Source: an uncultured bacterium
GTDB taxonomy: Bacteria; Omnitrophota; Omnitrophia; Omnitrophales; Aquincolibacteriaceae
Reading direction: 5' to 3'
Assembly (NCBI GenBank): GCA_964434115.1
Contig: CAYSSX010000005.1
Coordinates: 95,063 to 159,062, forward strand
DNA length: 64,000 nucleotides
The position numbers and the translations under genes are program-made. The notes under the pieces are model-generated. The model had not been told where the DNA came from. It worked only from the letters and a program-made list of their open reading frames with translations, and searched no databases. Shown here piece after piece: positions 14,712-38,300 of this stretch (position 1 is its first letter; every line of letters begins with the position of its first letter).

Positions 14712-14713
14712 AG

Positions 14714-16269: not shown

Positions 16270-16299
16270 TTTCAACTCATCAAATCAGCGGATAAAAAA

Positions 16300-16614
16300 C
16301 TAACCCGCCAGATTTACGCCGCCGTCCGGAATTGACATTTCTCCGGGAATCGGGAACGTCACCAAATTAAAAGCTCCGCCAACCGTTGACATCAAGCCAT
16401 CCACCAGGCCTTTTCCAACACCGGCCCATGGATTTTTCTTCTGCTGCTGATAGTCAAGCGGAACAGAAACAAGCTTGGTCCAGCCCAACAGAGTGTTGGT
16501 AAGACCATTCTGAAGTTTATGGCTTACACTGTCCGCATAAGTATCCGCCGCAAAAGCCGTTGCCGGAATCAAAAGCAGTGATAATACAAACGCGAGACCT
16601 AGTGTTTTCTTCAT
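16300..16614 (-). CDS. small secreted protein (signal peptide, ~104 aa), hypothetical
   Basis: Start MKKTLGLAFVLSLLLIPATAFA, with the GAGGGAGG SD 5 nt upstream. The ORF-track start at 16713 adds an unsupported 33-aa leader. Confidence 0.6.
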   Translation of the reverse strand: MKKTLGLAFVLSLLLIPATAFAADTYADSVSHKLQNGLTNTLLGWTKLVSVPLDYQQQKKNPWAGVGKGLVDGLMSTVGGAFNLVTFPIPGEMSIPDGGVNLAG

Positions 16615-16885
16615 GTTGCCTCCCTCGGGGGTTAAAAAAACGGCTTGATGCCGTCTCCTTAATTTTACTACCCTAGTATTATCGGCAGGGTACCAGGCTT
16701 TCATTGAGTTCAACTTTCCTGTAGAAAATTACAGGGTTCCAAGGGCGGCTTAAATTACACATTTCATCGAAAAAGGATTTGCTTTGTTCGTCTTGTTTTA
16801 TTAGGATTTCCCGCAAGGCCATTCCCCCAAACTTGTAACGCGGACCGGAGACCTAACGGCTCTTCCGCACAGGTTAAAAAAGGCT

Positions 16886-17530: not shown

Positions 17531-17532
17531 TC

Positions 17533-18078
17533 ATGAGAAAAAAGAGCGCCCCCCTCGCCGCGCTGGTCTTGAGTCTGCTGTTCCTGCAGTCTCCGGTAAA
17601 AACAGAGGCGGGACAGGAATTCCGGAGTTTTGAAACCATCCCTTCACCCGCGGCCGAAGAAAGAACCGCCGAAGACCTTGCCGCGGAAGGTTATCAGCGC
17701 GTTTCCACCGCGCAGAACATTTCCACTCCCATGGTCGAGAAAATGGTGTATGACCTTTTTGAATCGTGGAACTCTCACACGCTCGACCAGAAGCTGTCGC
17801 GGGACTTTCCGAATAAAAACCGTCTCAAGGAAGCGATTCAAACCGGCGTTCCCCGCCACGTAAAGCTTCAGGTGCTGTCTGTTCAAAATCCCCGCATCGT
17901 GGAACAGTATGTGCGTCCGCATCCGTCCGGTGACGGCACGTACCAGCTCCTCAGCAAAGTTTCCGTGCGTGTTCATTCGCAGATCGCGGCAAGCTCCAGC
18001 ATCCGGAGACAATTTCAGCGCGTCGACGGCGTCAGTGACTACCTTTTCCATGTGACCCAAAAGGTTAAAGCCGCATGA
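17533..18078 (+). CDS. secreted/periplasmic hypothetical protein
   Basis: The start was chosen at MRKKSAPLAALVLSLLFLQSPVKTEA (signal peptide). The ORF-track start at 17410 lies inside the preceding gene. The stop overlaps the next start (ATGA). Confidence 0.55.
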   Translation: MRKKSAPLAALVLSLLFLQSPVKTEAGQEFRSFETIPSPAAEERTAEDLAAEGYQRVSTAQNISTPMVEKMVYDLFESWNSHTLDQKLSRDFPNKNRLKEAIQTGVPRHVKLQVLSVQNPRIVEQYVRPHPSGDGTYQLLSKVSVRVHSQIAASSSIRRQFQRVDGVSDYLFHVTQKVKAA

Positions 18079-20321
18079 GGAAACGCTCTCTCGTTCTAGC
18101 TATGGCCTTGCTTCCGCTGGGAATTCCCTTTGCGCAAGCCTCACAGGCCGGGGACCTGGTAGACTCCTCGCTGGATTCCCTTACCGACTGGCACATCGCC
18201 GGGCAGAACACCACCCGTTATGATCTGTATGATGAGAACGGCTACAAGCCTTCTTCGGTTTACCCCTATGATGCCAGCCAGGTTTACAATGAAACCCGTT
18301 TGTCTTTTGACCGGCAGCTGTCTCAGTATGAGTCCCTGACTTTTTCCTCCGCCGGGCTTCTGAACGGCTCTCAATACCGCAGTTCGGAACAAGGCTGGCT
18401 TTTTGAAGATATTCGCGCAAGCTGGCAAAAGGGAGACGGCTTTGTTCCTTTTCGCGCGGACCTCGGCGATTTCACCGCCAACTTCAGCTACCGCACCATT
18501 CAGCAGAACATCAAAGGAACCCAGATTGAAATTCAGCCGGACCTTAAGATCGGCAATCTGGAACAGCGGCACTCCCTCATCGGGTTTGCCGGCAGTCAGC
18601 AGCAGGATTACCGGGACTATCAGCTGGACCGCAATACTTTCAGCGGCGGCTCATGGCTTGTGGACCTTGCCAAGTACGGCGTCTGGGCCTTTCACTTCGT
18701 GGATAACTTCCGGGAAAAGGACAACACCAACGGCTATTTAAAGGCCCGTCATCAGAACACCATGGGCCTGACCTTTGAGAAAATTTTCAATCTCGCTAAT
18801 CAGAGAATCGGCGTTGAAAGCGAAGTCGACCGCTTCGGCGGGGATTATGATTCCTTCACGGACCCTTCAGGCGTTGAGCAGGACAAATCAGGCATGGGGT
18901 ATTTCTTTAAATTAAACGGCGCGAGCGGAGACCTTTTTGATTACGGCTTCCGTTTTGAAGATTACGCCGATCACTTTCGTCCGAATGGCGGCGTGATCAG
19001 TTCCAACCGGCGCACCGTGGCTTTCAAACTCGGCGGCAATGTCTACAAACAGCTCCGGCTCGACACGCGCTACGAGGCCTTCCGCGACAATCTTTATTCC
19101 TTCAATCACGTGGACACAAGTTCAGGCGGCCTCTCGCTCGCCGGTCCGATTGAAAACAAATACCTCCGCGATCTGAACATTTATCTGGATGTTTTTCGCG
19201 AGAGCATCGACAGCGAAGACCGCTTTTATAATGTACGCACCTGGTCCTACGTGGGGCATATTAATTCCGCGATTTACAAACAGTGGAACGGCCACATTGG
19301 CGGCAATTTCCGGAACGCGGACGATGATGTTTATCAGTACACCTCCATCACGCGCGAATACACGGTGGATGCGGGACACCCCTTCTCTTACAAGGGCGTC
19401 ATGGGAGATGCCCGGGGCGGTATCGTCTACCGGGGCATGGGCGGCCCGAATGAAGGTTTTCAGGTCGGCCCCTTCTCTTCCGTTTCGGCCACAAAAAACC
19501 GCCACAGCGTCAACCTCAACACCAAGCTTCTTGTGGATGACAGCCGCTCCGAGTTCGGGCAGGACGTTTCTTCTTTCAGTTTCAGCGGCGGCTATTCTTA
19601 CACTTACGGTCCGCACCGCTTGGCTTTTGACTTCGATATGTTCAACCGGAATCCTTATGAGTACGCGGGCGCAACGGAGGATTACCGGCTTGGTTTTACC
19701 TATACCTTCAGCTTCGACAAACCCGTGGGTACCAACATCCGCGACTTCTCACTCCGGCGCGGCTACAGCGCCCCGGATTCCGTTGTGGAAAGAATCTGGG
19801 CGGAGACAGCCCCCCGGGAAATTCTTTTCCTCGAAGGCACGGCCCCGGGCAAGACCTTGCTGGAGGCAAAAGCTTTTCTGGAATCGCAGGGCCTCAAATC
19901 CTCGACGGCCCAAGGCCAGCTTCTTATCTATGAGGTCCGGATTTTTCACGATGTGGATTGGCGCCAGCGCCTTGTGATTGAGCATGATGGCGAGCACGTG
20001 CTGCACACGGCCGTGCTTTTGGATCTGGATCCGGGTCTGAATCCATCACGTTCTGAAGAAGCTTATGAGCGGGTGCGCGGGTTCCTGCTTAAGCGCTACG
20101 CGAACCCGTCGACGGAAATCCGCGAAGGCGAATTTGGCCCGGATTATTCGAGCCTGATTAATTCCGGGCGTCTTGTCCGTGTTACGGAATGGACCACTCC
20201 GGCTGGCAAACTCCGCTTCGGTCTTCCTCATCGTTTTGGCCAGGCTGCCCGCATGGAAATTCATTACGCTCCGGAATTGCCCGAACCCCGCGAATCGCGC
20301 TGGGGTCTTGAAGCTGTTTAA
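18075..20321 (+). CDS. outer-membrane beta-barrel protein (porin-like, 748 aa), hypothetical
   Basis: A signal peptide (ALLPLGIPFAQA) is present. The body is Gly/Tyr/Asn/Asp-rich with alternating amphipathic beta-strand character throughout. The C-terminal aromatic-rich segment is typical of OMPs. Confidence 0.6.
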   Translation: MRKRSLVLAMALLPLGIPFAQASQAGDLVDSSLDSLTDWHIAGQNTTRYDLYDENGYKPSSVYPYDASQVYNETRLSFDRQLSQYESLTFSSAGLLNGSQYRSSEQGWLFEDIRASWQKGDGFVPFRADLGDFTANFSYRTIQQNIKGTQIEIQPDLKIGNLEQRHSLIGFAGSQQQDYRDYQLDRNTFSGGSWLVDLAKYGVWAFHFVDNFREKDNTNGYLKARHQNTMGLTFEKIFNLANQRIGVESEVDRFGGDYDSFTDPSGVEQDKSGMGYFFKLNGASGDLFDYGFRFEDYADHFRPNGGVISSNRRTVAFKLGGNVYKQLRLDTRYEAFRDNLYSFNHVDTSSGGLSLAGPIENKYLRDLNIYLDVFRESIDSEDRFYNVRTWSYVGHINSAIYKQWNGHIGGNFRNADDDVYQYTSITREYTVDAGHPFSYKGVMGDARGGIVYRGMGGPNEGFQVGPFSSVSATKNRHSVNLNTKLLVDDSRSEFGQDVSSFSFSGGYSYTYGPHRLAFDFDMFNRNPYEYAGATEDYRLGFTYTFSFDKPVGTNIRDFSLRRGYSAPDSVVERIWAETAPREILFLEGTAPGKTLLEAKAFLESQGLKSSTAQGQLLIYEVRIFHDVDWRQRLVIEHDGEHVLHTAVLLDLDPGLNPSRSEEAYERVRGFLLKRYANPSTEIREGEFGPDYSSLINSGRLVRVTEWTTPAGKLRFGLPHRFGQAARMEIHYAPELPEPRESRWGLEAV

Positions 20322-20332
20322 GGGCTTGGTAA

Positions 20333-23300
20333 TTACGCGGAAGCGGCAAAGGCGAACTGGTTGAGGTAGCTCGCCGCAAGATCTGCAAGAAAAGGTTTCA
20401 CCTCGTAAAACACTCCCCGCTTTTCAATCCCGCTTTGAAAGAGAATCTGATCCGGATCATAAGACAGCGCCACGGCAAATGTTCCCGGACGGTCTTCTGA
20501 AACTGCAAAAAAACGGATCGTCTCCAGCGCGCTGGCGCTGAAGGAAGTCAAATCCCGGTCCCTTCTTGCAAAGGCCACAATCCCGTTTTCCCGGAATTGC
20601 GGGCCCAGTGACCGGAAAACGTCTTCTCCCCCGGCCTGCGTCCAGACAACATTCGGGAAGGATTTAAAAAGATCCTTAAGCGCGAGCACGCGTTCGTGTT
20701 CGGGCATAACATTGTGAATCACAAACCGGACATCACTGCGCTGGCTCACCGTAATCGCCGCTTCACGGACCTCTTCCGTTGTAAATGTCACGAGGTCACG
20801 GAAATCAATCATGGCCGCGCCCGGTTTTTTCACCGGTTTATAAAAACTTTCCAGGGAATTGTCCTGAAACCTCAGTTCGGACCGCGCCGGGAGAAAAGGC
20901 GCGATCCGGGGGTCATCAACAATAGAACTCAGCGTCGGTTTCGCCCTTCCCTTGGGCCACCCGAATTTCATGCCCAGCTGGTTAGGACTTGTGATCCCTC
21001 CGCCGGCCAGAGCGCGGTAGCGCGCCGCAAACTCCGGCGCTATTCCAAGACCCCAGAGAACTTCCGAAATCGAAAAAACTTTTTCCTGAAGGTACGCGTG
21101 ATTCTGAAAGGCTTTATTCTTCAGCCCGTTCAGATTCGTCCATCCGGCCGCATCCAGCCACGCGAGAATTTCCTGCTTTTTTCCTTCCGGATTTTTTGCA
21201 TCCAGAACTTTTAGAAGACCGCCTGCCGGAATTTCGATTTTTGAAAAATCAACCTTTGCGGACTGCGCCATTCTTTTATAAGCCGGCGTTGTCACGCCTA
21301 GGCCTTCGGCCGCGTAATCAAGATGCCCAAGATGCGCGGCATAAGACTCCTCAATTTTCTTCTTCGCCTCTTCCTGAATGCCCAGAAGTTTGACCAGTTC
21401 ATCGTAACCGCGCGTCACCACCCAGGAAACTTCCGGATGCGCATCTGTAAATTTCTTCAAATTCCAGGCATATGTTTCTTCAAGCTCCTGAAGGACTTCT
21501 TCCTTCGTCATCGCAAGCGCTTTCAAAAGGTCAAAGGCCGAAGCTGTCTCAGGCTGTTTCTTTTTAAATTGCGCCAGCTCCTTCAGGATCCGTTCAATGT
21601 TCGCTTTGGCGGAGGGCGTGTCGAAACCAAAGGATTCTCCGACGCGAATCATAAGACCGCCGTATTTCGCTTTTCGATCCGACGCCTCATAAAGAAAATC
21701 CTCCGCGAGGTTAAGCCCCCACAGCAGCCGCGCGTAAGAGAAGCCCGGGCTTTTGAGAAATTGAAACCCCGGCTTCGCGGCAAGAAATTTTCTGAACTCC
21801 ACAAGATTGAAGGTTGTCCCGTTCTTTTCTTCGGCAAAGACCGCATAGAGTTCCTTGCGGATCGTTTGCGCGGGTTTCTGCCCGGTTTTTTCAAGCCTTT
21901 GAAGCAGGGTGCCCGGAGGAATTTCTATTTTTTCGAAATCAATCCCAAGGCTGGCCGTTTGATGATCATAGGTCTTTGGCGGAAGCCCCATCAAGCGGGC
22001 AGCTTCCCTTTTTCTTCCCACGGACTGCTGATAAGCCTGAATATAGGGGGACCTGATTTTATTCGCCCCTTCCTCGAGGCGTTTACCGCGCGCCTGGGCC
22101 GCCATCCGCACCGAGACATCCAGGGACCTAAGCGCTTCGGCATTCCACGCATTCAACAGACGAAAGGTCTTCATGTCTTTCTTAAGGATCCATGCCGCGA
22201 TCAAATACTCTGACGCCTGATCAAAGAGAATTCCGAGATCGCGGTAAACCGACTGCGCGGTTGACTCGCCCATTTCCCTCCGGAGAATTTCCCGGATATT
22301 TTCAAAATCAAGAATCATGCTCTCAAGGAGTTCCATTTTCCTTATTTTCTTCTGCGCCTCGCTGCCGGACCCGGGCATCTTCTCAGTGCCGTGCAAACGG
22401 TCAAGGTCACGGTAGATGTCTGCGGGGGCCGCCCATTCCTTTGCCCTCAGTTCAGAACGGAACGAAGGGTGATACTTTTGAATCTTCAAATCCTGAAATC
22501 CTTCGCCCATGACATCCACGCCCACAAGGACAAGTCCCGGGTTTTCAATTGCTGACCTTTTAAGCTTCAAGATCACGGATTGTCTTTCAGGTTCTTGCAT
22601 CCACGCCCACACATTGTTAAAACTGATAATCCCCGCTCCGGAAAATAATTTCTGCAGTTCTGCGGACTCGGCATTTCCTGTCACGACACGGATGGCGGCC
22701 GAAAAATCCTGCGGGCGGGCTTGCGATGCTTGCATCAGTTCAAAAGCAGAACGCATCACCTCTGCCGGGGCACCCCGGCTTGCGGCAACAACATCAAGGA
22801 TATCCAGTCCTCCGCCCGAAACCTTGCTCCTGGACCTTTGGGCCATTTCCTCAAATTTTTCATAGCCCACAATTTCATAGGTCAGATCACTGTAGCCGGG
22901 TACCCTCTTTATTCTTTGGAGAATCCAGGCCCAGAAGAAAAGCTCCTGCCCAAAAGACGGCCCCATCACAACCACAGCAAGATGCTTTGTCTTGAGCGCA
23001 TCAATCTGCCGGAGGACGAGGTTGAGGTACCAGGACTCATGCGACATGAACCGGTTTGCCAGCTCAGAGTAGGCGTTGAATTTCTTATAAGCAGCCCCTA
23101 GATCCTGCCGGCGGGTATAGCGGAACATCGCGAGCAGAAGCTCGTCTCCGCGAAGCAGGTCCGAAACCACTCCTGTGAAGCTTCCCCGGTATTGATCCCG
23201 GAAAAGACGCGTCACCGAAAAATGCGTCATAAAATCGAAAAATTCTTCGCCGCTGACTTTTCCTCCCGCGGCTTTTTCAAGAACCTTATAAATCGCAGAA

Positions 23301-26300
23301 AAGTCCTTCATATATGAACCGATATGATCCTCAAAAAGAAGCACCTCGGGAATTCCCGGTTTTCGCCACTCCTCCGCGGCCCGCAAGTCCCACTCGCTCT
23401 CAGCCCTAAGCTCGGCCCGCTGCCCCGGCTCAGCGGCAGCCGCCGATTTTTTCAGAAGTACTTTCCAGCCGATCAAAAAAGGCGTCTGCTCCGGCTGAGG
23501 GACTTCAAAACGCTCTAATTCTAAAACCGTGAAGCCGTGGGTCTCGAAAAGGGTTTTTAATTTTTCTTTCTCCGGATCTCCGAAAGCAGCCGCGTGTTCG
23601 AGGTAATATTTAAAAAGGCTTATATGGCTGCTGATGTCGCCGCGCATCTCTTCAAGGGCGGGAATGGCTTTTTCTCCAGCAATCAAGATCAGTTCCATCT
23701 GATCGATGACCTCCTGAACGGTATCGGTCTCCTTTCCGCTTGCGCTGCGAACAGTTTCTTGAAGCGCGCTATGAGCCGCGAGAACCCTTTCAGAAGTCTC
23801 AGGACCCGGGTCCAGGGTATAGTCCAGAAGGGCTTGAACAACCCCCGATTTCTGAATTTCCTCCATCTCCCACAGCCTTTCGCGGACGGATTCCGCGATA
23901 ATGGAGCCGCTGTGGTGAATCACCAGGGCCGCGGGCGCGCCCGGCTTCAAAACCTTATTAAGGGCTTCAAGGGCACGGCCGGGATCCTGCACATACTCCA
24001 GTCCATAAGAGGCTGTTGCGGCATCAAAAAACTCCGGCGGGAAAGCTTCTGCAGTATTTTCAATTCGGGTCTGATGAAAATAAATTCCCTGTCCGGCGGG
24101 AATGAAGGAAGGATCCAGAGGAGCGCTGTCCACTCCATGAAATTCGGCTGAGCTCCCGGAAATTTTCAGGGCCTCGGCGGCTCCGATCCTGGGAACAAAC
24201 AGGCGGCCCGTGCCGAGATCCAGAAACTTTGAACCCGGTTTGTTCTGAAGCACACCGGAAAAAAATTCTCCGAAAAACTTTTCAACCGCGGCCCTTTCCT
24301 CTTCAAAGCCTTCCCCAAGAATTGAAATCTGCCCTTCTTCGCGCCACTGCTCAGGCCAGACATTTCCGGACTCACTCTCGGTGCTCCTCAATTCTGAGCG
24401 GTGATTTTTTTTGAAATAGTCTTTGGCCGGTGCTTTGGCAGTCTCGTCCGAGCCCGGTGCGGAAACCCGGTTTTGGATCGCCGTCAGGATGAAGGATTCT
24501 ACGTCCTGGATTTCAACCGGCGAAATCAAAGAGCGGACCCGGACCTCGTCGCTTGCCGCATCTTTCCACATCAAAGCTTGCCAGCCCTTATGAACAGCGG
24601 ACTCAATACCAAACCAGTCGTGGAGATTCGTATCCAGATTCTCAAGCGTTGTCCTTAAAATCACGGGTTGAGCCCCACCTAAAACATCAAGCTGCAGGGC
24701 AAACGCCCCTTCATGGGGCCGCAGGTGAACAGCGCGAATAGTTTTAAGATCCGGAATCTCAGGTTGTGAAATACCGCTGTCTTCAGGGATCTCAAGTTTA
24801 AAGATGAGTTTTTTCAAAGACGGCGAGAACGGCTGGCTGATGGCGACCAGGTTGTAGCCCTCGTCTTTCAAAAGCAGCTGCGTGTGCAAATCCTGTTCAT
24901 CCACAGGAATCACAATTGAAGTGAGGCTGTCCTCTTCCGCAATTTCTCGAAGCTGCTGGAGCAAACGTCTGTCAACACCCCGAAAGTTCAACGCTGGAAG
25001 AATTCCCATACGCTCCACCATAAGACGCTGTCCTATCTGGTGATAAGCCAAATAGCCAGCGGAATTATGTTCATGTTCCGCGGTCAAAACACGGCCCTGT
25101 TCATTTTGCACAAAATCAAGAAATGCACTGAACGTCCAGGGCTCTTTCCGATCCACGCGCGCTGTTTCAATTTTGGATTCGAACAGATGAAAATCTTCGA
25201 CCTTATGATCCCGGACAGTGACTTCAAGCTGGCTGTAATCCCCGCCTTTGAGGCGAAGCCCGAGAAGGCCAGCAACTGCTTCAACTTTTTCCGCAGGGAG
25301 TCCAGAAGTTTTTGAAAATGCAAAGGCCGTCAAAGGCAGCTCGCGCCCTGATCCTTCAGGGAGAAGTTCCAGCATTCTCTCCTTTAGTTTTTGCTCGCGG
25401 ATGGGCATGAGAATGTGATCGGCATCGTAGGCCGGAATTTCCGGATAACGTGCAACCGCTTCGGCTGTCACCAGCTTTTCAAGCGGCTGCCGGAGAGCCC
25501 AGGCATGCATCTGATTACGCGGGTCCCTGACCCTGTCATGGCGGGCGGTTTCTTCAAAATCGATTTCTTCCGGATCTTGCCGGTATTCGAAAAGATACGC
25601 ATCCTCCCCTGTGTCTTCGAAATAGTCCCGGCTGACTTGCACAGCCGAAAAACCCTGAGAGCGCCAGAAAATCTGGGCGCGCAAATCGCTTTCACGGACG
25701 ACCACGCGCAGCCAATTACGCTGCTGGGCGGAAAGCTTTCCTTTTAACTTCTCAACCATTTCATGCCCAATTTTCCGGCCGCGGGTTTCCGGCTCTACTG
25801 CAAAATTTAAAATCTCGAGGCCCTTGCGATGAAGTGAATAGACCATGAACCCCTTCACAAAGTCGCCAATCTCCGCGACCATTCCGATGACGTTGCGCTG
25901 CCGAAGGGCCCGAAGAAAATCTTCGTCCGTCCAGGGCATCGAGAAACTTTTCCCTTCAATGTCAAGGACCTCAGGCATGTCCCGCCGGATCATCCAGCGG
26001 ATATGAAGCCCCTTAACGGGATCACGGCTGACATAAGGTCCTTCTTCTGGGAGTGTCCGGCTGGGAGCCGCGGGTTTCTCTGTCACAAGTGAAACTCCGT
26101 AATAGGCGAGTATCTTTTCAGCCTCTTTCGGGTTTAAACCAAATTCCTCGGCCTGGCTGATAAATGCCGTCATAGTTACCGGGGTGCGCTCCAGGCTTTG
26201 AGCCCATCGGCGGAAGTGTTTTTCACCTTCGGGAATTTTACGGATTGTTTTCTCCAGCAAGTAAAGGCTTTTACCGTCCTTCAACTCATACTCATCCAAA

Positions 26301-29300
26301 AACTTAAATCCGGCACGGGTACGAAAATTTCTTCCGCCGTCCGCGAAGTCTTCAACGGGAAGTTCCCACAACATCCGGTTAGGAGAAGCTGTTTTCGCTG
26401 CGTCTTGATCTTGAAGGTGTTCAGTGAACCGCCGAAGCATGGCGCCGGGAACAGTTCGCGCCGAAAAGGCGGCATCCAGAATCTCATACGTTTCTCCGCT
26501 TTCAGAATAAGCCAAATATCCGGTCAGCCGGCCGTAAGAACGAGCTTCCAGAATTTTTCCTCCACGATTCAGAAAATCCCTGAAGGCCTCACGGGTCCAT
26601 TCAAACCGCGATTGCTCTTTCGCAAAACTTGCAAGATCTTCGACTGAAGAGAGATCCGCCGCGCGAATCCGGGTTTTATAAGCTGGCTGTTTCACTGTTT
26701 TCGAGTCTCTCGTCCACGGGCTGACTTCCTTGCGCTTAAGGCTTTCCAGAACGCCTTTCGGGCTCGCGGCCATCTTGAGCTCCCGCTGCTCTTCCATGTA
26801 CTTTTTCATTTCACGGAGTTTGCGAAGAAATCTTGCGGCCTGTTCCTTGGATTGAAGCAGGTTCGCATCGATTTCCGGATGCCAAAAAACAAATTCGGTC
26901 ACAGACTTTTTCTGCCAGCTTTCATCCTGCTCCGAAAGCGAAACAAACCCTGCTTTCTTGAAAAACTCGCTCACGGGTTCGTTTTGCACGGGCACGTCTG
27001 CGGAAACAAATGAAAGGTTTTCCTTGTTCATGATCCACTTAATATGTTCCAGCATCTGGCTGCCGATGTAAGAGAAGCGGTGCGCGGGATCGACGGCCAT
27101 TTTCTGAATGTCGATGCGCTCTTCAAAAATCTGATACACGATATAACCCACCACACGGCCTTCTTCATCCACAGCCACAGTTTTAAAACGGTTAAAGCCT
27201 TCTTCCACTTCATCCATGAGTCCCCCGCCGGAGTCCTCGCGAGTCTCATCTTCTTTGGGTTTTTCCTGAAATCCCCAAGGCGACCAGCGGTCAGGAACCC
27301 GAAAGGCTGCGCTTTCAATCCGCATCACATCATCAAGGTCTTCATCGTTCATATCCCGTATCAAAAGGGCCTCGGCCGGATAACCGCCGCGCGGCTTGAG
27401 ATTATGCTCTCCGAGAATGCGCCGGACCATCAGAGCACTGAGCCCGGGATATTTTCCCCGGATGTCTTCAAAATTAAGGGAAAGCTCTGCTCCGGGCGTC
27501 TGGCGCAAAGCCCAGGCCCGAAGAAAAGTCATGGGTGATGGAACATACTCTTCGGGAATTTCTCCGCCTTCTTCAGGACGCCCGCCCCAAAGCGGTGAGT
27601 AATAATCGAGTGTGTAAAAATCTTTCTTTCCAGAAGACCTCGATTTTTGGACATGCTGATGCTTGGACTTTCCGAAATACTTTAAATCGCGGAAAGCAGC
27701 TTCGAGAGTCAGCACTTCTTTGCCGTCGTCACGGAGTTTTTTCTGGGCCATGCGCCAAAGCACCCGCAAGAGCATTCGCGGGCCTTGGGCAGGATCAACA
27801 GCATATTTCAAGACTTGCATGCCGGACTCTGTAGGCTGATACACAAGATAGGCTGCGATGGAACCGTTTCTAAGCGCAACGATCGCCCGCGCCCCGTAGG
27901 CCGTCTCCAGATGTTCCCAAAACGTTTCGCCCCAGGGATTTTTCAGGCGTGCATCAAAATCAAAAAACGTTTTCAACTGTCCTTCAGGAAGTTCCCGGAT
28001 CTCATAATTCTGTCCCCGGGCTGTCACGGCATGCGTTCTCGTGACCTCATAATTTTCATGCGTGCCTTGATTGGCCCAGTAAGGCCATGTTTTGCCGCCG
28101 TCCAGGGAGTACTGAAAAGTCAGTGTTCCGGAAAAATCACTTGGCAGCGTTACGCCAACCCTATATGTGCCGTTTTCAAAATTGTCGTACAGCGTCATCT
28201 CAAGGTCATTTTTCCACTCCACGTCTTTTTCGGTTTTGTAATGAACACGGGCCTTAATCCATTTCTCAGGATTTTCGAGAATGCGGTCGGTGTGGATATT
28301 GAAATAAAACGCCACCGGGGTCTTGTCTGTGGCTTCGATTTTCCGGCCTTGAACTTCCTGCGCTCCGGCCATGACGGCAAATTCGCCATACCCCTTCCCT
28401 GCAGGATGAACAGGCCCTTCTTCGAGCGGGGCCCTCAATTCGCTGCGGCCCTTATCCTGATCTCTGGGATCAAGAGACCGGAATTTCGTCACAAGCAATT
28501 TGGGAGAATCAGCAGGAGACTGCCCGGTAATTTGGTTGTACGTCTGCGCGGTTGAAACCCCTGAAATGCTATGGACGGGCTGCTGCCGCGAATAAGGGGG
28601 AACTGTTTTCGTCAAAGCGCCTCGATCATGGACGGTGATCATCACGACGTCCTGATCCCCAGAGGGCAGGGAGCCGAGACCGATTTCAACATCAAATGTT
28701 TTTTCCGGATACGCAAAGGCCAGATAATCCGCCGCCGCCTCAAGAGCTTCGTCCGCACCCTCTTCTGTTTTTACATAATAGATTTCATCTGCCTTCACAT
28801 CCGGATGCGCACGGACAGCGATGGCTCCGGCAGGACCCGGCGTGTGCACGGTGGTTAAATTCATACCCTGTGTTCCCTGCTGAAGAAAACGCGTGACCAT
28901 GATCGGTTTCCGGGGATCAGGCTGAGAGCCCTCAATCAGCGACCGCGCTTTTGAGAGAGTCTCTTCCCGCCCAAGGTTCTCTACAGGGGAAACTTCCGGA
29001 TAAGGGACATACTGTTCCAGGGAATGCTCCATGCCCCGCAGTTCGCTGCGGACCCCGTGCTCGCCGTTCAAAGGAAGAACATGGGTTTCTTTGAATTCGC
29101 GGAAAACATCCGCCCCGCCGGACGTGATGAAGGAATTTTCCAGCACCTCCTGCACTAAACGGAATCCATCGCGGACCTGCGCGAGATAGCCTTCCGGTTC
29201 ACGTCTGTACATGGCATGTTCAAGGCCCATCAAGTAACGCTGCCACGCGTGGTCAATCACATTCAGCTGGCGCTCGCGGGTCCATAGTCTCTCCTGCTTT

Positions 29301-32300
29301 GTCAGCTCAAGGAAAAGATCGCGGGCTTCATAAAAAACACGCCGGTAGGGATCCAGCTCGTCGTCATAAAAAAGAATCTGCCTGCGGCTTTGCCGGAGGA
29401 TCTCTTCGCTGCGGGCCTGGTCCCCGAAAAGACGGAACGATTCGTCTTCCTCTGATAAAAACCAGTAAACCTCACCTGGATCGCCGCGCCGTGCCGCACG
29501 CAGCTTTGCCTGGTCATCAATCCTCCGCGAACGGCTTTTACGCGTCATGATCACGGCAAGGCCGCCGAGCGCGCGGACATCGTCTTCGATTTTAATATTC
29601 ACGCCACGGCCCGCGACGCTGGTCGCGATTGTAATCTGGCCTTTTTTACCGGCATTCGCGACCGCCAGAACTTCTTCTTCCAGATCCAGCCCGTCGATCA
29701 CGGCCGCATCCAGAGATTCCTCTTCAAGCGCCCGGGCAAGAGCGCGCGCGTCCGAAATGCGTTTGACAAAAACAAGCACGGGCCTGCCGGCCGCGTGAAG
29801 TTCCGCGATTTTTCCGGCGATCAAACGGTCTTTCTCGTTTTTCGTGCGCGTCACGACCGGCGGATGTTCTACCAGCAGAGTCGGCGACTGCTTGGGAATG
29901 CTGATATAAGTCAGTCCGTAGGTTTTTTCAATTTCCGCGGCGTCATTGCCCATGGTTCCCGTGATAATGGAAAATCGGCTCCGCCGCTGCATCATGCGGT
30001 AGTAATTCTGGTACGTAATCAATCCGTTGTGAAAGGTGGGCTCAAGCAGTTCAGCCTCGTTTCCATGATAGGTTTCTTTCGCCGCGATAAACTGATGCCG
30101 GTGATTGCCGAGCACATGATGGGATTTAACTCTTCCCGTGAATTCATCCACCAGTTCAATTTTTCCGTTTCTCAAAATATAATCGCCGTCCCGTTCATTA
30201 AAATGCTTGGTCAGAAGCGCCTGGCGGAGCAGGTTTCCCAGTTCATGCTCACGCATCAGTTCAGTGAGCTTGAGCGTGTCAAACTGCAGGTATTTTAAAT
30301 AGTGGATCGCGGCCAGAAGCCCGTGCCGGTGAAGCTCCACCGATTCTTTTACGGGATCAATCTCGTAATCCGTGTCTTTGGAAAGGGCAAGCGCTGTTTG
30401 ATAAAGCATGAGGTAATCAACCTTTCTCAAACGGGCGGCTGAAAGAGCGTCAGGAGAAGCCAGAATCAGTGGATAACCCGATTCATCCAGAAGGGTCGCG
30501 TCCCCCTCATCAAGAATCACAATGGAGGGACCTCCGGGAGGCTGCACCTTCTGATCCAGCCGCTGTTTTCTCTGATCATAAAGAAAATCAAAAACAAACA
30601 AGTCTTTGACTCCATAAACAATGTCGCTGCGGTAAACGTCTTTCTTTTGAACTGGCTGACGATGGCCTTGGTTATCTTTGTAAGAGGAGGATAAATGCTT
30701 CTTTCCGGGACGCCTGGAGCCGCTTGACGCGGGATCAAAAAGATAAGGCTGGTCGGCTTCCGTCATAACACCGACGCGCATGCCAAGAAGGTCGAAGACA
30801 GGCCCCATTTCCTGGGCATCACGCCCGGCAAGGTAACTGTTAAACGTGTGAATGTGCGCAGCCCGGCCGCTCAGCGCGTTAATATACGCCGCCATCGCGA
30901 TAGAAAGCGTCTTGCCTTCTCCGGGCTCTTTCTCAACAGCGCTGCCGCGGTGAATCGCGATAGCCGCGGCCACTTGTTCATCCGACGGATACTGTCCGAT
31001 CCTGAAACGCGCAGCCGACTTAAAGACAGCGGCGGCCTCTGAAAAAATCGAATCCACAGTTTCACCGGCCGAGAGTCTTTCTCTGAAAGCTTCTGTCGCG
31101 GCCCGGAAATCCGCTTCTTTTTGAAAGCGCCCTTCACGGCGGTCTTCGTTTTCACGCTGAGTAATTTTAGCGGCAAGGTGCCAGATTTCAGCACGGCCAT
31201 CCGGCGCGACACCCAAAACTCTTTTAAGGTTTTTAAGGATTTCCGTATCCCGGACAAGATCAAAACGTGCTCCCAGGATATTCCTGATTTCTTCCGGGCT
31301 GAAGGCGAGCTTCACCTCTTCAGCAAACTTTCTGAGAAGCACTTCGGGAGTTTCTCCGCGAAGCATTTCAAATTCAGATTCCTCAACAAGATCATGCATA
31401 GTCCTGTAAGCAATCCCCGTTTTCCGGGTCGTTTCGCGCTGGTTACCCGCATGCAAAATGAGTGCTGAGATCGCATAGGCACGTTTTAGCTTTGCGAGAG
31501 TCGTCAATTTGAAGTCCCGTGGGAGCTCATGGCTGAATGAATCCTGAGGCAAACGGGCTTTGAGATACCGGGACAGCTTGGAACGGCTGATCCCGAGAAT
31601 TTTCACCGCGTCCGTCTGAACTCCGCGCGCATAGGTCATTACATCCCGGATATAATCTTTCTCCCTTTCGGCCCAGCTCCGGATAACCTGTTCGTCCGAA
31701 ATACCGGAGCGAAGTTCGGAGCGTACAGCTTCGCTTTGAGGATCGTCGCCGGTAATAACGGTCCACATGCCGGATTCTTCCTGAACTTTGTCCGCGAACT
31801 CTTCGAACTCGCGCCGGACTTGCGATTTGATTTGAAAAATATCGATCCACAGAACTGCGGCCGTACCCCATGCCAAAAACTCAATGAGCAAGCCGATCCT
31901 TCCCGCAGCCGGACCGAAAAGAAGGCTGAGTGCGGCTGTAAGAAGCGCCAGCACTGCGGTCTTTTTGTACGAAATCGAAAACCTTGCATGCTTGGCAAGC
32001 CATGGCCAGCGCTTAAAAAGATCGTTAACCCCTTTGAGCTCCGAAAGAAAATCCGCGGCAAGGGTCTGATCAATCACTGCCGTCAAGTAAGGGAAAGTAC
32101 GTGCGTCGGAACGGGGGTTAGAAATCGTCACCCGGACCTGATGATTCCACGGCACAACAAAATCAAGGCCCGCGTACTGTCCGGAAATTTCAAAGGCATT
32201 CCGGCTGTCTTCCGGTGACCAGGAGCGCACAGTTTCGCTCTTCCGGTAGCCGCGCACAATGAGACGGGTGCGCGAAAGAATTCTCTCCAAAGCCTCTCTG

Positions 32301-35300
32301 GCGAACTCTTCGCGGAAAAGATTCTGGTAAACGGCAGTCATGGCAAGAAAATGATCCCGGACATGGACTTTTGAAACTTCGGGAAAGTCTTCTTCCCAAA
32401 CCTGCCAGGACCGCAAAACACCCCGCTCGAGATTTTCTTTGATTTTCGCCCAGCTCTGCGTAACGCCGCTGTCAGAGGCAATCCAGTCCCTGAGAATCAA
32501 GCCTCCATTTTCGACATGAAAAGATGTTTCAAAAACATCGAGAAAGGCTTCGACGTTTCGGAAGCCCTCTTCCCGGGACACGTTCATTGCACTTCTCAAA
32601 ATTTTCCAGACGGCTTCATTTTCTTTCGCAGCCGCTTCATAACGTGCTTCAGCCTGCCGGGCCGTTTCATGATAGAGACGCGGTTCCTGCTTCCTGAGCG
32701 ACTCCGTCAAATAGTCTTCCGCGTAACCGCTGAAATCACGGAGTTCTGAGCGATCAAACGTCTCACCGCCTGCGGCCGCTTCGGGGAATGATTCGATTTC
32801 TGCAAGCAGGAGTTCGGGAAAGTTCAGCGGGTGCCCCTGAACTTTCTCGCTGCGAAGGGGCTTCCAGTGAGTTTTCACGATAAGCTGAATGCGTGTTTTG
32901 GGTTCCGTTTCCTCGCGGTAGCGGGCCAGTATTTCCCGCGCACGTTCCGATATCGCTGCCGCCGCCAGGGTTTCTTCATAATCAAGAGCGCCCGGAACAT
33001 CCTCTTCCGAAAGGGCCTGAATAAAAGCCGCTGCGATCATGCTTTCATATTTTCCAAACTTGGGAAGCAGACCGTCTGAATCAGAAAAACCGACCACGAG
33101 ATCGATATCCGAATCACGCCCCAGTTCAGGAGACACAAGCTGCTTGAGGGAGGCGCCCTGAACTCGTCCTCCGACCCACACCGCCTGAACCGGGTAAACC
33201 GGAAGCCCGGCCCCGCGCGCGGAATCCGCGTAAAGCTGAAGAGCCTTTGCGGACACGCGCCGAATCCCCCGGAATGTTCTTTTGTAGTTTTCCGCTTTCT
33301 CAGGCGTGATGGCGCCCGCGCTAAGGGCTTCCTCCACCCGCCGTTCATTCACGCTCACCACATCTTCATATGTTCTGATTTCCCGGTAGCGCCCAAAAGG
33401 CTCGTTGGTGCGCAGTTCGGAGCGGCTTTCTGAAATCCGATTGTCTTCAACAAGGGCAACCTTCTGCCCCTCCGTTGAAAAAAGGCGGCGGACAAGTTCT
33501 GCTTTTTTCCATTCACGGGGAACCAGCCGAACTTCCTGAACAGCCCAATCCCTGGGAATGGCCATCCCGCGGTAAGTTTTGTGTTCAAGATCAATCACCC
33601 AGATCTTGCTCCTGTGAATATCCACAGCAGCATAAATTTGCCCATACAGCCACCGGACGTTCTGAAGCCACTCTCCCAACTGAGCCGGGCGGGAGACGCC
33701 GGGCATTCCGTTCAGAGTGATTTCGCGCACGGGCTCAAATTTGCTGTCAAAGACCTGGAACTTTCCATCGCGTGTACTGGTCACCAAATAGTGGTTGTTC
33801 CCGATTTTTCTAAATCCATGCGGGCTTGAAAAACCGCTTAGGACTTTCAAGGTTTTCCCTGAGGCTTTGTCAACCACAAGGGTTTCGCCCCGATGGAAAA
33901 GAGAAATCAAAATCGTGTTGGAATCAAGAGCCATCGCGCTGTTCAAATGCACCGCTCTTTGACGCGTAGGAATGCCGAATTCCCCCCAGGTGGAAGGGTC
34001 TTTAACCCAAATAACCTCTCTGTGTTCCGCTTCAAGCTTCCGGGCTTCTTCTTGTGAACGGGTTAAAAAATTTCCAAACATCGACTGGTTGTAACCATGT
34101 TCCCAGGCGTTCCATTCCCAAACCACACGGTCACGATAGGTGTCAATTTCATAAACCGCATCAAAGCCGGTTGAAGCAGCGAGAAGGTATCGTCCGTCCG
34201 GAGAAAATTGAACCGTATGAATGTGTGCAAACCAGGGGTAAGTGTAAATTTTTGTGCGGCCCGTTTTGCGATTCAAAAGAGTAATCGTGTTGTTGCCCCC
34301 GACCGCCATCCGTGAACCGGAAAAATCCACATCGTGCGGCTCAAGAGCACGCTCTGACCAGAACGAACTTGCTTCGTCCATGCTGTCATTTTTCAGAGAA
34401 ACGGCGAGGATCCGGCCCTCTTTGTAAGGCCTCGACGCTGCCCCTCCTATCACTTGAGGTCCGGGTTGAAGCATGGATTGCAAGGCCCGCTCATCCGTTG
34501 CGGACTGTTCCATGCCCTTAACCGTCACAATAACGTTTTCATCCCGCGCAAGGCCGTTGTCGTATTGAAAACCGGAAAGCTGTTCTGGAATACCCGCCCG
34601 GAGCTCTGAGCGGACAGAATCATCCTCTTCCCCGTCATAAATTTTAAGAGCTGAGACGGGGAGATCAGGTTGTTCGGACACTCTCTCCGGCTCCTCTCCG
34701 GGAATAAAAAGCTGGGGCTTTTTTGGGGAATGTTCTTTCCATTTTTGAACCACTCTTTCGGCTCCGCTCATCAGAAGCCCTGCCGTAACAGCGATTAATC
34801 CGGCGCCTATTTCCTGCGCCAGGCTTAAAGACTTTCCCGCTGCGACTTGCGCGGCGGAAGCAAAAGTTAAAAAGGCCGCGGCATTAAGAAGGAAAAAACC
34901 TGCGCGCTTGATTCTTCCTTCAGCAACGGCAATCACAAAAAAGGCGCTCATCAAAAGCTGCATGCCGGCAATAAACTCTTGATGCTTTGCGGGCAGAAAC
35001 TGCGCGAACACTTGCCCGGCTTTTAAAGCCGTGAACGCGGCTCCTCCCTGCACCAGGAACCGCACCGTTTCCTGAAAACCGCTTTCTTCCTCATCGCCGG
35101 GTTCTTCCGGAGCGGTTCTCAGTTCCGAACGGACGCGGGGAATCAACAGCTTCACTTTTAATCCCTGCTTGTGCTTGATTTTTGAAACGCCTGTTTCCAT
35201 CCACGGACGCCCAATAATTTCACCTTCAATTCCAAAAATAGGCAGTGCAAAATGTTCACGCGTCCAGCGGTTGAGACTGCGGACCCAAACCAGAGAAGCA

Positions 35301-38300
35301 AACCAGCCCGAAAAGTACCTTTCACTTTTCTTGTCATACTGCACAATAACTTCCCCGCCGAGAATCCGCCGGATCACCGCGTCAATCGCATTGTGATAAC
35401 CGTGTTTGCGGACCCTGCCAAATTCATCAGGATATTCTTCGCCCATGATCGACCGCCGCACACCTTCCGCCCGGGAGGTCAACGCGCCGCCGTCCCGGAT
35501 AATGAATTGAACATTCTTAGGATCATCATCCAGCCGGTAAAAAAACATGGCGCCCATGGGGTCCACGTGCCGGATATTGGCAATCAGCTCCGAGAAAACC
35601 GGCGTCAGCTGGCCCGCCTTAAAAGAATCGCCCGGCCGGACAGAAAAATCGGGGACGTCCGATCCATACCGCTCGCGGAAGATTTTTTTCCCTTCTTTTG
35701 TGACAAGCTCTCCTTCAATCCCGGCATGATAAATAAACAGGTCTGTTGTGAGAGTTTTCAACTGGCTGAGCCGTTCCGACTCGGCAGCCACCGCTTCGTC
35801 GAGAATGGCGAGCAGCCCTTGATCAAACTCCGCGGCGGCTTTCATGTAGTTCGGCGTTCCCATCGGATGAGCCCTCAGCGTGCGGTCTTTTAAAGCTTCG
35901 ATAGCGGGGCCCATGCTGTGCGTCTTGCTTCGGTACCAGTGTTTCAAGAGCTTGGACACGATTTTGTCCGCACGCCTTTCGGGACTGGGCTCTTCCGTTT
36001 CTTCAAAGGGTGATTCATCCATTTCCGCGTCCGGATCAACGCGGAGTGCGGAGTGGGCCTGCTTACCCAAAGCGGCGTCATGAAGTTCGCGGCTAAAAGC
36101 ACCCGAACGGATTTTTTCATCAATGTCTCTCAACACTTCAATATTTGTGCTAAACCATCCGTAAACATTGCCATTACGGTCAATAATCGCCAGGGACTGC
36201 TCCAGCGGATCCACGGCCGATAAATCATAAAGATGGCGTTCCGACAGTTTTTCCGGGCGCACCATCCAGGTCATCATGTCAAGGACATGGCGTCTTGCCA
36301 TTTCAGGAATGGCCTGGATCTCTTCTTCCGTGAGCGCCTGGTTTTTTTGATACCGCTCGACTTCCTGCCGGAGTCCCTGAAGATTGAATGTCCGGTCGTC
36401 CGTTGTGATTTTAAAAATGCCTTTGAAAAAATCATAAATGCGGACTTCTTTTCGAAGATGGTCCCAGTCAAACACGGCCTTAACCTGGTCCCCTTCATAC
36501 GTCATGTTCCCGGGATGGAAATCGCCATGAACCAGAGTCTGAGGAAGACGGGCATAAACAGGCGGCGGAAGATTGAGATTTAAAAGGGAGATCTGTTCAA
36601 GGAGAAAGCTGGCGTTCTGCAGAAAAAATCTTTCCCCGCGCGTCAACACAGCGCTGGGATCGGCCTGTTTTTGAACCAGCCTTGCCTGAAGCTGCTTGAT
36701 GCGTTCTTTCTGGTTTTCAAAATCCAGAATGGAAGGGCGGGTACGCTTTCCCGTTACTTGAAAATCCCGCAGGGTTTTATGCATCGCAGCTAAGACGTCG
36801 ATGGAATTTTCAAACTGCTTCGTGTTCAAGGTCTCAGGCGTAAGATTTTGGCCTTCAACAAAATGATAAAGCAGGTAGATTTTCCCGTTTGCGGCTTCTA
36901 CAAAATAGCGGTCTTCATCAAATTCCCCTGCGGGTTTTGTCGTCGGCACCAAGTCCGCGGCCGGAATCCCTTTGCGCACCAGTTCCCGCACCACGGACAC
37001 TTCAAAACGAGCGCCTTCTGTCAGCTCGGGATAAAGCACACGGGTCAGCGGTTTAAGAATGTACTTGCCCTTGCTTGTGGTGACCTGAAGAGATTTGCCG
37101 TGCTCCCCGATCCCCCCGGCTGTGGGGCTTATTTTCTGAACTTCTCCGAGGGCATACTGCTTCAGGACTTCTGGCGCAGCTTCCAGATCTGCGCGGGCCA
37201 TCTCGGCCTGCCAGCGCGCGCTTCGCACATCTTCCCTGTCCGGATCTTCTGCCGTTTCTTCCATTCGAAGCTCGGCCCTGGCCGCTGTTTGACCGGAGTC
37301 ATTTTTTCTCGTCTTACGGAACCGGAGATCCGCTTCACGAGCCATTTCGGGCAGATCGCCGGATAAATTCCGGACAATTCCGCTCAGGCTGTTCATTTCT
37401 TCCGCAATCCGTTGACGCACCTCGGGTCGGCCTGAATTTTCCATTTCAAACAACGTGATAAGGCGGGCCATGCCCGAAGCAATACCCGAAGCAAAAATGC
37501 CTGACCCTGCGGCCATGCCCTGCCGGTAATATTCCTGGTGTCTTTCATCAAGGTGCGTGACCCGGGGCACGGCCACGGCATAACCCATACCCAGGTTTTC
37601 CAGAATGCTCCGGATGCGGTCCGAATGAAATCCTCCATACACCAGCACCGCGGTTTTCTCATCCGGAATTTTTGAGAATTCTTCCACAGCTTCACGGATT
37701 TTTTCGTCGCGTCTCATCGCGGTCTCATAAAAACCGCGCGCGCACTGAAGGCTTTCTTCCCACCGGCGCGGCAGCACAATCGTTTTCTTTCCTTCGCGCG
37801 CCAAAAAGGCGGCAAGGTCCTGAGTCTTGAAAGCGTCGAGGGTTTCCTTCGAGGCCTGGTATTCGGCGGGAGTGACTTCGAGTTTGTTCAAACGGTGAAA
37901 AAGGCGGACGGCTTTGAAATACTCATACAGTTGTTTTTCCCGAGGACTCTCAAGCAGGGCTTCGGCAAGGCCGTCTTCGAGCCGTTTCATTTCCAGAAGA
38001 AGCTCTGAGGCCCCCCGCTGATTCACGCGGTCTAAAAGATCGGCTTGCTTGGTGTCCAGCGCCCGCAGCATTTCAGCAGAGGCGGGGTATAAAATTTCAA
38101 ATTGTCCCCCTGCCGGCGAAGCAAGGTAAAGGCGGCAGACCTCCCTCAGATAAACCGCGAAGTCTGTTTTGGTTTCTTCAAAACGTTTCTTCGCACGCAG
38201 AAAATCCTGAAGCTTTTTCAAACCGAGAGAGCGTGTAAGATTCTCCAGCTCTCTTTCCACAGCCAGGAAATCCTCTTCCACATCTCCTTGAACACGCACC

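Follow-up and report, generated by a model that had tools for sequence, protein, structure and literature searches.

Five tandem RimI-like GNAT modules, one of them near-canonical, in a separator-bounded cassette of an Omnitrophota giant protein

Introduction

RimI is a protein N-alpha-acetyltransferase whose target is the N-terminal Ala of ribosomal protein bS18. Several other enzymes carry tandem folds of the GCN5-related N-acetyltransferase (GNAT) type with one inactive domain, among them mycothiol synthase MshD, Eis, and N-myristoyltransferase. In MARTX toxins and viral polyproteins, one chain joins several unrelated enzyme cassettes by short exposed linkers. Here we analyzed a 64,000-nt stretch of DNA, hereafter the window, from an uncultured Omnitrophota bacterium (GenBank assembly GCA_964434115.1, contig CAYSSX010000005.1, positions 95,063 to 159,062), and in it an array of five GNAT modules encoded within one giant open reading frame (ORF).

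Giant proteins of Omnitrophota are described, in two preprints, as carrying a divergent SecA without the wing/scaffold domain, many transmembrane (TM) helices, and GNAT and methyltransferase domains (10.1101/2023.11.21.568195; 10.64898/2026.06.07.730766). For the GNATs of such proteins, West-Roberts et al. propose a modification of cell-wall compounds (10.1101/2023.11.21.568195). One giant-gene preprint states that it is not known if giant proteins are cleaved and that information on cleavage points is lacking. The protein studied here belongs to these multi-enzyme giant proteins, since its divergent SecA without wing/scaffold, its TM segments, and its GNAT and methyltransferase domains match the published descriptions. 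A term search of the same two preprints (10.1101/2023.11.21.568195; 10.64898/2026.06.07.730766) found no description of a five-fold RimI array.

Results

The giant protein contains five homologous GNAT modules

The array occupies most of one cassette of the giant ORF. Amino acid positions are counted from the TTG start, with nt = 38845 - 3(aa - 1). The parts are as follows.

20333..38845, minus strand: giant ORF, 6,170 aa counted from the TTG start
24401..28432, minus strand: cassette 9 (aa 3472-4815, 1,344 aa), with a beta-domain, five GNAT-plus-linker units, and a tail, and RSELR on both sides
28013..28432, minus strand: N-terminal beta-rich domain (aa 3472-3611), possibly a carbohydrate-binding module (CBM) or an Ig-like sandwich
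27521..28012, minus strand: GNAT copy 1 (aa 3612-3775), degenerate, loop G-P-R-M-L-L
26861..27382, minus strand: GNAT copy 2 (aa 3822-3995), intermediate, loop R-F-S-Y-I-G
26231..26662, minus strand: GNAT copy 3 (aa 4062-4205), the most degenerate, with no acetyl-CoA loop and an insertion at the place of beta5
25571..26014, minus strand: GNAT copy 4 (aa 4278-4425), near-canonical RimI, loop R-G-R-K-I-G
24746..25213, minus strand: GNAT copy 5 (aa 4545-4700), degenerate, loop N-F-R-G-V-D
24401..24745, minus strand: C-terminal tail domain of cassette 9 (aa 4701-4815), conserved with the relative P0002 and matching no family

We found exactly five homologous GNAT modules in the giant ORF, at aa 3612-4700 (nt 24746-28012). 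Three of them scored above the gathering score of Pfam Acetyltransf_1 (PF00583; 20.7 bits), namely copy 2 (41.9 bits), copy 4 (34.5 bits), and copy 5 (24.3 bits), and Pfam returned no match for copies 1 and 3. In leave-one-out scoring, a hidden Markov model (HMM) built from four copies was scored on the fifth, with 1,000 shuffles of each copy as control. Copies 1 to 5 (G1 to G5) reached 29.9, 51.5, 24.3, 47.6, and 39.0 bits, respectively, and the best shuffle scores were 6-10.6 bits (6.0 for G1 and 7.2 for G3). Pairwise BLAST connected all five stretches (for example, G1-G2 at 4.7e-8 and G3-G5 at 3.6e-7), and the copies aligned in register at the GNAT landmarks, with one Trp and one Tyr invariant. 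The five-copy HMM detected no sixth copy in the giant protein and none elsewhere in the window. Self-BLAST of the whole of cassette 9 gave the identity match alone, and a module-by-module comparison was needed to see the copies.

The original prediction, made from the letters of the window, had read this region as five GNAT folds in a row. Pfam bears this out for copies 2, 4, and 5, and the leave-one-out HMMs for copies 1 and 3. All seven peptide strings that it quoted are present in the minus-strand ORF, at aa 3676, 3913, 4346, 4874, 4945, 4966, and 5291. The range it gave for the GNAT and methyltransferase modules, 24806-27928, does fall on the GNAT array but clips it, and both methyltransferase candidates lie outside. 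We put the probability that chance resemblance or faulty annotation explains the array at next to nil. Copies 1 and 3 are indeed invisible to Pfam; this reading is nevertheless already refuted by leave-one-out scores of 24-52 bits, compared with at most 10.6 bits in shuffles, and by a colinear homologue in an independent assembly. The frame is also open over 18.5 kb, with domain matches along its whole length.

The GNAT copies are followed by helical linkers of 46-119 aa. Three of the four inter-GNAT linkers (aa 3776-3821, 4206-4277, and 4426-4544; region 25214-27520, minus strand) contain a W-A-x-[RS]-[QL] motif (FLRAWALRQ, FRRWAQSLE, and MHAWALRQ), with a short helix-turn-helix-like stretch after it. 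The motif occurs in P0002 as well, and it may be related to the tail motif N-R-I-x-x-Y/L that standalone RimI proteins from the same clade carry.

The array resembles protein N-alpha-acetyltransferases of the RimI/Ard1 type

The best PDB matches of cassette 9 were RimI entries (9mto, 2cnm, 5isv) and Ard1. The five-copy profile matched the RimI structure 9mto_A at E=4e-15, and copy 4 alone matched it at E=1.5e-9. Among proteins, the five-copy profile retrieved 3,527 sequences; those at the top were Planctomycetota proteins of ~173 aa, and the named ones were called RimI. The NCBIfam model rimI (TIGR01575) was the top match for copies 1, 2, 4, and 5. Copy 4 reached 86.0 bits over model positions 1-131 of 132, and copies 2, 5, and 1 reached 46.9, 35.8, and 18.4 bits, respectively; NCBIfam gave no match for copy 3. 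In addition, copy 4 is 50-58% identical to hundreds of short Planctomycetota/Omnitrophota proteins, and its named relatives carry the label ribosomal-protein-alanine N-acetyltransferase. Enzymes of the AAC type scored far below RimI, Ard1/Naa, and YpeA in sequence, profile, and fold searches. These results point to GNATs of the RimI/Ard1 type, acting on protein N-termini, and not to aminoglycoside or polyamine types. There is no other RimI-like ORF in the window, and two-copy RimI proteins exist as free genes (P0003, P0004, and P0011).

The polyamine and aminoglycoside-like substrates that had been suggested for the array find no backing here, as every copy with any match ranks RimI/Ard1-type protein N-alpha-acetyltransferases first. 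We considered more broadly whether the GNATs might acetylate small molecules or cell-surface sugars, such as polyamines, aminoglycosides, or prey cell-wall compounds, and regard this as distinctly improbable. It would agree with the cell-wall proposal of West-Roberts et al. (10.1101/2023.11.21.568195), and cassette 9 opens with a beta-rich domain whose weak Pfam matches include a carbohydrate-binding-module-like one (Reelin_subrepeat-B, E=6.5e-5, 23.1 bits with a gathering cutoff of 27; CBM_21, E=0.7). The ranking of the matches speaks against it, and so does the predicted topology. Hydrophobic segments were predicted at aa 26-44, about 1290-1358, and 2297-2337 of the giant protein, and none beyond aa 2337. 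The acetyl-CoA- and SAM (S-adenosylmethionine)-dependent modules would therefore share a compartment with the SecA-like ATPase of the same protein, rather than face the cell surface.

The five copies have decayed to different degrees

To compare the copies with standalone relatives, we built a family HMM from 142 RimI-like domains of Planctomycetota/Omnitrophota and used its 52 family-conserved columns. G4 scored 226.5 bits on this HMM, followed by G2 (62.2), G5 (43.7), G1 (23.2), and G3 (9.0). The conserved columns kept were 48 in G4, 21 in G2, 13 each in G5 and G1, and 10 in G3; in 9mto, the solved structure of a distant RimI, 22 of these columns are kept, about as many as in G2. The second Gly of the acetyl-CoA loop is Gly in 136 and Ala in 6 of the 142 family members, and only G4 and G2 retain it. 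Both keep the loop Arg and the last Gly and do not keep the first Gly, a position that is Gly in 101 of the 142 and Lys, His, or Asn in other members. Copy 4 moreover keeps the Glu of RE[ST][ND], which is present in 135 of the 142. G3 has no loop and reads (S-A-R)-T-V-P at this place, and G5 has Asp at the invariant Gly/Ala position. When the loop is checked copy by copy, it is thus partly kept in copies 2 and 4 and wholly lost in copies 1, 3, and 5.

For copy 3, an AlphaFold (AF2) model made with a RimI-based alignment as input had a mean pLDDT of 73 and the GNAT order of strands and helices except beta5. Foldseek placed 9mto_A on top (E=2e-7), and RimI/Ard1 structures gave TM-scores of 0.63-0.70. 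The model is consistent with a GNAT fold.

The original prediction had also offered iterative modification of a substrate by five acetyltransferases. We judge it very improbable that all five copies are active on one substrate, repeatedly or at several sites. Five copies per polypeptide would suit such a scheme, and copy 5 does exceed the Pfam GNAT threshold. However, copies 1 and 3 have no recognizable loop, copy 5 has Asp (Glu in P0002) at the invariant Gly/Ala position, and copies 1, 3, and 5 keep only 10-13 of the 52 columns.

The array and its decay pattern are conserved in a second giant protein

Among 1.84 billion cluster representatives, all covered by an exhaustive HMMER search, one other protein carries the whole five-GNAT array, P0002 (5,056 aa, from a different assembly). 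An earlier word-index search with the whole of cassette 9 had given nothing at E <= 1e-5, although relatives exist. The P0002 match had 33% identity over query residues 101-1157, and cassette 9 is colinear with P0002 aa 3487-4692 (29.6% identity over 1,269 columns). In P0002, the cassette is bounded by GARMA at 3127 and 4693.

The copies of P0002 showed the same rank order on the family HMM, with 188.5 bits for G4, 64.2 for G2, 27.3 for G5, 4.7 for G1, and 3.4 for G3. Diagonal Smith-Waterman scores of 310, 123, and 370 marked G2, G3, and G4 as clear positional orthologues. The G2 loop is unusual yet common to both proteins, R-x-S-Y-[IV]-G (R-H-S-Y-V-G in P0002), and the G5 loop F-R-G-V-[DE] is likewise shared (R-F-R-G-V-E in P0002). 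The loop of P0002 copy 4 is fully canonical, R-G-R-G-L-G. Linker motifs are shared (AWALRQ compared with VWAARQ and AWGMRQ in P0002), and blocks of the tail align (LRTTLENLD with LRSTIEDLD, and RSLISPVEIQ with RSLRSPLEVQ). The same five-copy order and decay ranking in P0002 indicate that the array predates the split of the two proteins and has been kept since. That the array and its decay pattern were maintained argues for some continuing role of the decayed copies.

No further arrays emerged when metagenomes were scanned with copy 2 as seed. In related giant ORFs, the RimI-array HMM was run over the first ~3,800 aa and detected no GNAT there. By eye, P0002 also shows at aa ~1335-1575 a membrane cassette with CPBP/CAAX-protease-like motifs (EEIVFR ... 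HMAINL), together with a PRTase-like motif and an HPr-like C-terminal cassette.

A proposed role of cassette 9 as an N-terminal acetyltransferase unit with pseudo-GNATs

We propose that cassette 9 is a RimI-derived N-terminal acetyltransferase unit with a catalytic copy 4, an uncertain copy 2, and pseudo-GNATs in copies 1, 3, and 5. On the sequence comparisons above, we put the probability of this reading at about 0.55. An old five-fold internal duplication would have built the cassette. Copy 4, which keeps nearly the whole RimI signature, would be the acetyl-CoA-dependent catalytic module, with a protein N-terminus as its likely substrate given the RimI affinity. Copy 2, with its conserved non-canonical loop, may have retained cofactor binding or moved to a different function. 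Copies 1, 3, and 5, which lack the pyrophosphate-binding loop, would serve to hold the substrate, to present it, or to scaffold the active copy, by analogy with the dead domain in known tandem-GNAT enzymes. The giant protein is anchored in the membrane, but its C-terminal two thirds, to which the cassette belongs, contain no TM segment and are presumably cytoplasmic. The cassette might be freed from its neighbours by cleavage at the separators described below. The alternative of degenerate, binding-only copies, which the original prediction had also raised, agrees with what is seen in copies 1, 3, and 5 and perhaps in copy 2.

Several observations weigh against our proposal. The textbook loop Q/R-x-x-G-x-G/A is complete in none of the five window copies, and in copy 4 a Lys replaces the first loop Gly. 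Copy 4 also falls 0.4 bits under the TIGR01575 equivalog cutoff of 86.4 bits. Val and Trp stand in copy 4 at the columns of Glu103 and Tyr115, the proposed general base and general acid of Salmonella RimI. For copy 3, the model does not test the fold independently, because the input alignment consisted of the other copies and RimI homologues. Finally, the conservation argument rests on two sequences, since P0002 is the sole other protein with the full array among the cluster representatives searched.

Some of these points would also favour the view that the whole array is catalytically dead and that its five copies only bind peptides, acetyl-CoA as a metabolic signal, or other cassettes. The incomplete loops fit this view, as does the Val at the general-base column of copy 4, which is found in both giant proteins; window copy 4 has, besides its Lys, an Asp for the near-invariant Asn at column 110. 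We nevertheless consider a dead array doubtful. Copy 4 keeps 48 of the 52 columns, including the second loop Gly, the loop Arg, and the RE[ST][ND] Glu, and the corresponding loop of P0002 is fully canonical. The Val and Trp of copy 4 are weak evidence, because the standalone family itself does not conserve Glu and Tyr (Glu in 76 of the 142 at the first column, and Phe in 111 of the 142 at the second).

Short peptide separators divide the giant protein into cassettes

We counted 12 occurrences of the pentapeptide R[SA]ELR in the giant protein, compared with 0.02 expected. Apart from one chance RAELR, it is absent from the other ORFs of the window. The sites are listed below.

37265-37279, minus strand: R[SA]ELR site 1
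35117-35131, minus strand: R[SA]ELR site 2
34598-34612, minus strand: R[SA]ELR site 3
33410-33424, minus strand: R[SA]ELR site 4
32738-32752, minus strand: R[SA]ELR site 5
31709-31723, minus strand: R[SA]ELR site 6
29036-29050, minus strand: R[SA]ELR site 7
28433..28447, minus strand: RSELR upstream of the GNAT cassette (aa 3467-3471)
24386..24400, minus strand: RSELR between the GNAT cassette and methyltransferase MT1 (aa 4816-4820), equivalent to GARMA 4693 of P0002
23405..23419, minus strand: RAELR between MT1 and cassette 11 (aa 5143-5147)
22445..22459, minus strand: RSELR after cassette 11 (aa 5463-5467)
20870-20884, minus strand: R[SA]ELR site 12

With these 12 separators, the giant protein falls into 13 pieces of 168-1,344 aa, and no Pfam domain crosses a separator. 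All five GNATs fall in piece 9, MT1 forms piece 10, and a module that had been called CheR-like forms piece 11. The original prediction had taken the region as domains of one continuous protein; there is one ORF, as it said, but the separators assign the domains to three different cassettes, and each of these may end up as a protein of its own. Since the twelve copies differ in their codons, what is conserved is the peptide. The same observation ruled out conservation at the DNA level, for example as recombination sites.

We surveyed the motif in 54 related ORFs of at least 1,500 aa that carry the head domain described below. About 31 of the 54 contained 3-13 copies of R[SA]ExR (0.057 expected per 1,000 aa), and about 13 contained 3-11 copies of [GA]AR[LM][AS] (0.017 expected per 1,000 aa). 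The two motifs were not mixed within an ORF, save for an odd single copy of the other motif, and the giant genes of one genome shared one separator type. The motif was sharply bounded with low-information flanks, at a median spacing of 320-372 aa. The residue after the separator was Ser, Ala, Thr, or Gly in 52% of cases, compared with 26% in the background and 32% at neighbouring linker positions (p = 4e-8). Based on these sequence features, the separators are candidate processing sites. Two short RimI-like proteins, P0034 and P0052 (the latter named Omnitrophota), have four or five copies of G-L-E-[ESV] after the GNAT domain, and this repeat may be a third separator type.

A 70%-identical relative, L001, retains six separators where it can be aligned with the window protein, and large indels between the two start directly after a separator. 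A block of ~1,350 aa in L001 begins straight after site 1808-1812. Conversely, the APH-kinase block of the window protein (36129-37258, minus strand, aa 530-905) is absent from L001 and starts 3 residues past site 523-527. Its absence from L001 and its position next to a separator make it look like a cassette insertion. Cassette 8 (28448-29035, minus strand, aa 3271-3466) matched no family and has a homologue in L032 (E about 1e-33), which lies at a different position (ORF 9842-21025, aa 2273-2462) and is bounded by RPEMR and RTEMR. A literature search on the separator strings returned only unrelated words (varSelRF and GARMA models), and a term search of two giant-gene preprints and of an Omnitrophota survey found no mention of the motifs.

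One methyltransferase, but not a second, follows the GNAT cassette

Two cassettes downstream of the array had been read as methyltransferases.

23420..24385, minus strand: cassette 10, the class-I SAM methyltransferase MT1 (aa 4821-5142, core aa 4867-4981)
22460..23404, minus strand: cassette 11, the module called CheR-like (aa 5148-5462), matching no family

A class-I SAM methyltransferase after the GNATs was borne out for MT1, which exceeded the gathering scores of two Pfam profiles, Methyltransf_23 (PF13489; 38.6 bits, cutoff 27) and Methyltransf_11 (PF08241; 28.9 bits, cutoff 21.2). Its motif I, FLDLGTGR (aa 4874-4881), is followed by GVD, FDAA, and LKPGAPAALV. In alignment with the methyltransferase 3bus_A, L-D-L-G-T-G-R falls on L-D-V-G-C-G-I-G with G-x-G kept, G-V-D lies ~25 residues past motif I, and F-D-A and L-K-P-G match motifs II and III. 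MT1 probably binds SAM, as an independent cassette.

The second, CheR-like methyltransferase gained no support from profile, pairwise, homologue, or fold comparison. For aa 5148-5462 there was no match in Pfam (E <= 10 for CheR), NCBIfam, PDB sequences, or the homologue search, and no relative among the 70 loci related through the head domain. Phmmer against E. coli CheR gave -2.1 bits, a score equalled or beaten by 755 of 2,000 shuffles. A single-sequence AlphaFold (AF2) model had a mean pLDDT of 46, with a helical N-terminus and then beta-alpha-beta; at this low confidence, the order of secondary structure is compatible with the CheR fold. Foldseek with the model found nothing at E <= 0.001. 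The resemblance by eye of GPSFGQELFFWAWIL and SFNNVWAWM to motifs of CheR (PF01739) is therefore a lead only, as no profile match, significant pairwise score, or fold match accompanies it.

The head domain and other parts of the giant protein

Upstream of the GNAT array, we located the following features.

37370-38668, minus strand: N-terminal head domain (aa 60-492), common to 70 loci
31559-31672, minus strand: HTH_8, a Fis-type helix-turn-helix (HTH), which precedes the SecA-like motor in the same cassette
29246-31171, minus strand: SecA-like motor (aa 2559-3200), with SecA_DEAD, a preprotein-binding domain, and a P-loop domain

The head domain retrieved 70 loci from species-representative genomes, nearly all of them Candidatus Omnitrophota, with more than one in several genomes. 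It was N-terminal in every related ORF and sometimes stood alone, as a protein of about 530 aa. Residues in IQDAH, EG, FYxxAxxRD, and GGFH are invariant. It matched PF04187 (ChaN, Tiki superfamily) weakly in 13 of 49 members (best E 2e-5) and TraB/PrgY/GumN in 4 of 49, and its profile matched nothing among PDB sequences. On this resemblance, the head domain is a possible hydrolase. When head domains were compared with one another, they grouped according to separator type. The nearest neighbour was of the same type in 31 of 31 cases, a pattern that shared ancestry would produce likewise.

SecA_DEAD (186 bits) and SecA_PP_bind (54.8 bits) were found in the motor, and a significant SecA wing/scaffold domain was absent (SecA_SW at only 15.9 bits, cutoff 26.7). 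The giant protein further carries a weak beta-propeller, the Fis-type HTH (aa 2392-2429), and the APH-type kinase (73 bits) upstream of the GNAT array. The combination of phosphorylation, acetylation, and methylation that had been predicted for one protein stands as an inventory of domains, but these modules lie in different cassettes. In cassette 12 (20885-22444, minus strand, aa 5468-5987), two similar stretches, ...GLPPKTYDHQTASLGIDFEKIEIPPGTLLQRLEK and ...GVTTPAYKRMAQSAKVDFSKIEIPAGGLLKVLDAK, resemble the Fis-type HTH of aa 2392-2429 and have no Pfam match. In cassette 5 (32753-33409, minus strand), the stretch GRDSDIDLVVGF around aa 1905-1920 looks like the G-S/D-x-D motif of a nucleotidyltransferase (Pol-beta type); it too has no Pfam match.

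The neighbours of the giant ORF are ordinary chromosomal genes, among them nuoC/D/F/G and genes for phosphofructokinase, MraW, a PilZ protein, and a DUF1579 protein. The public NCBI protein P0001 (6,161 aa, ATG start at 38818) is 100% identical to the giant ORF and is encoded on a 248-kb contig. No tRNA genes were found in the window.

Discussion

A bolder reading joins the separators to the array. The giant protein could be a polyprotein that is cut at R[SA]ExR (in a sister clade, at [GA]AR[LM][AS]) into 13 proteins, perhaps by the head domain, with copy 4 acetylating the new N-termini and the four pseudo-GNATs docking the sibling proteins. We hold this to be rather unlikely. The only protease-related lead in the giant protein is the weak Tiki/ChaN/TraB superfamily match of the head domain. 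If it were true, the five-GNAT cassette would be released as a 1,344-aa protein, and the processed N-termini would be rich in Ser, Ala, Thr, and Gly.

Omnitrophota giants with GNAT and methyltransferase domains have been described before, and the finding is therefore of a known kind. What goes beyond the record is a conserved set of one working-looking RimI and four decayed copies, together with the pentapeptide separators around the cassette, which recur in dozens of related giant genes. The array offers a clean natural example of pseudo-enzyme evolution through tandem duplication, and it points to protein N-termini as the target, not to sugars or antibiotics. The separators name exact residues to seek in proteomic data or to mutate, and would allow giant proteins to be split rationally for structure prediction.

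Comparison with known systems

Compared with RimI (TIGR01575; 2CNM, 5ISV, 9MTO), the likeness lies in copy 4, whose match covers the whole rimI model. RimI itself stands alone, with ~150 aa, whereas the five tandem copies here are part of a cassette of 1,344 aa within a protein of 6,170 aa. Four of these five are degenerate, and copy 4 itself differs by Lys, Val, and Trp at the first loop Gly and the two residues proposed as catalytic in Salmonella RimI.

MshD, Eis, and N-myristoyltransferase share with the array the duplication of GNAT folds within one chain; in those enzymes one copy uses acyl-CoA and the other shapes the substrate site. Their two GNAT-like domains are packed together, whereas the five modules here are separated by linkers.

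The likeness to MARTX toxins and viral polyproteins is one of functional analogy only, in that cassettes are gained and lost between relatives, as they are in the giant proteins here. Unlike them, the window protein has no cysteine protease domain or toxin repeats, and its cassettes look housekeeping or regulatory.

A further comparison is with the giant proteins of Omnitrophota themselves. The window protein differs from those of West-Roberts et al. in size, with 6,170 aa against a threshold of >30,000 aa, and no C39 or S8 peptidase domain was found in it. It resembles them in SecA_DEAD and a preprotein-binding domain without wing/scaffold, several TM segments, GNAT and methyltransferase domains, and the head domain.

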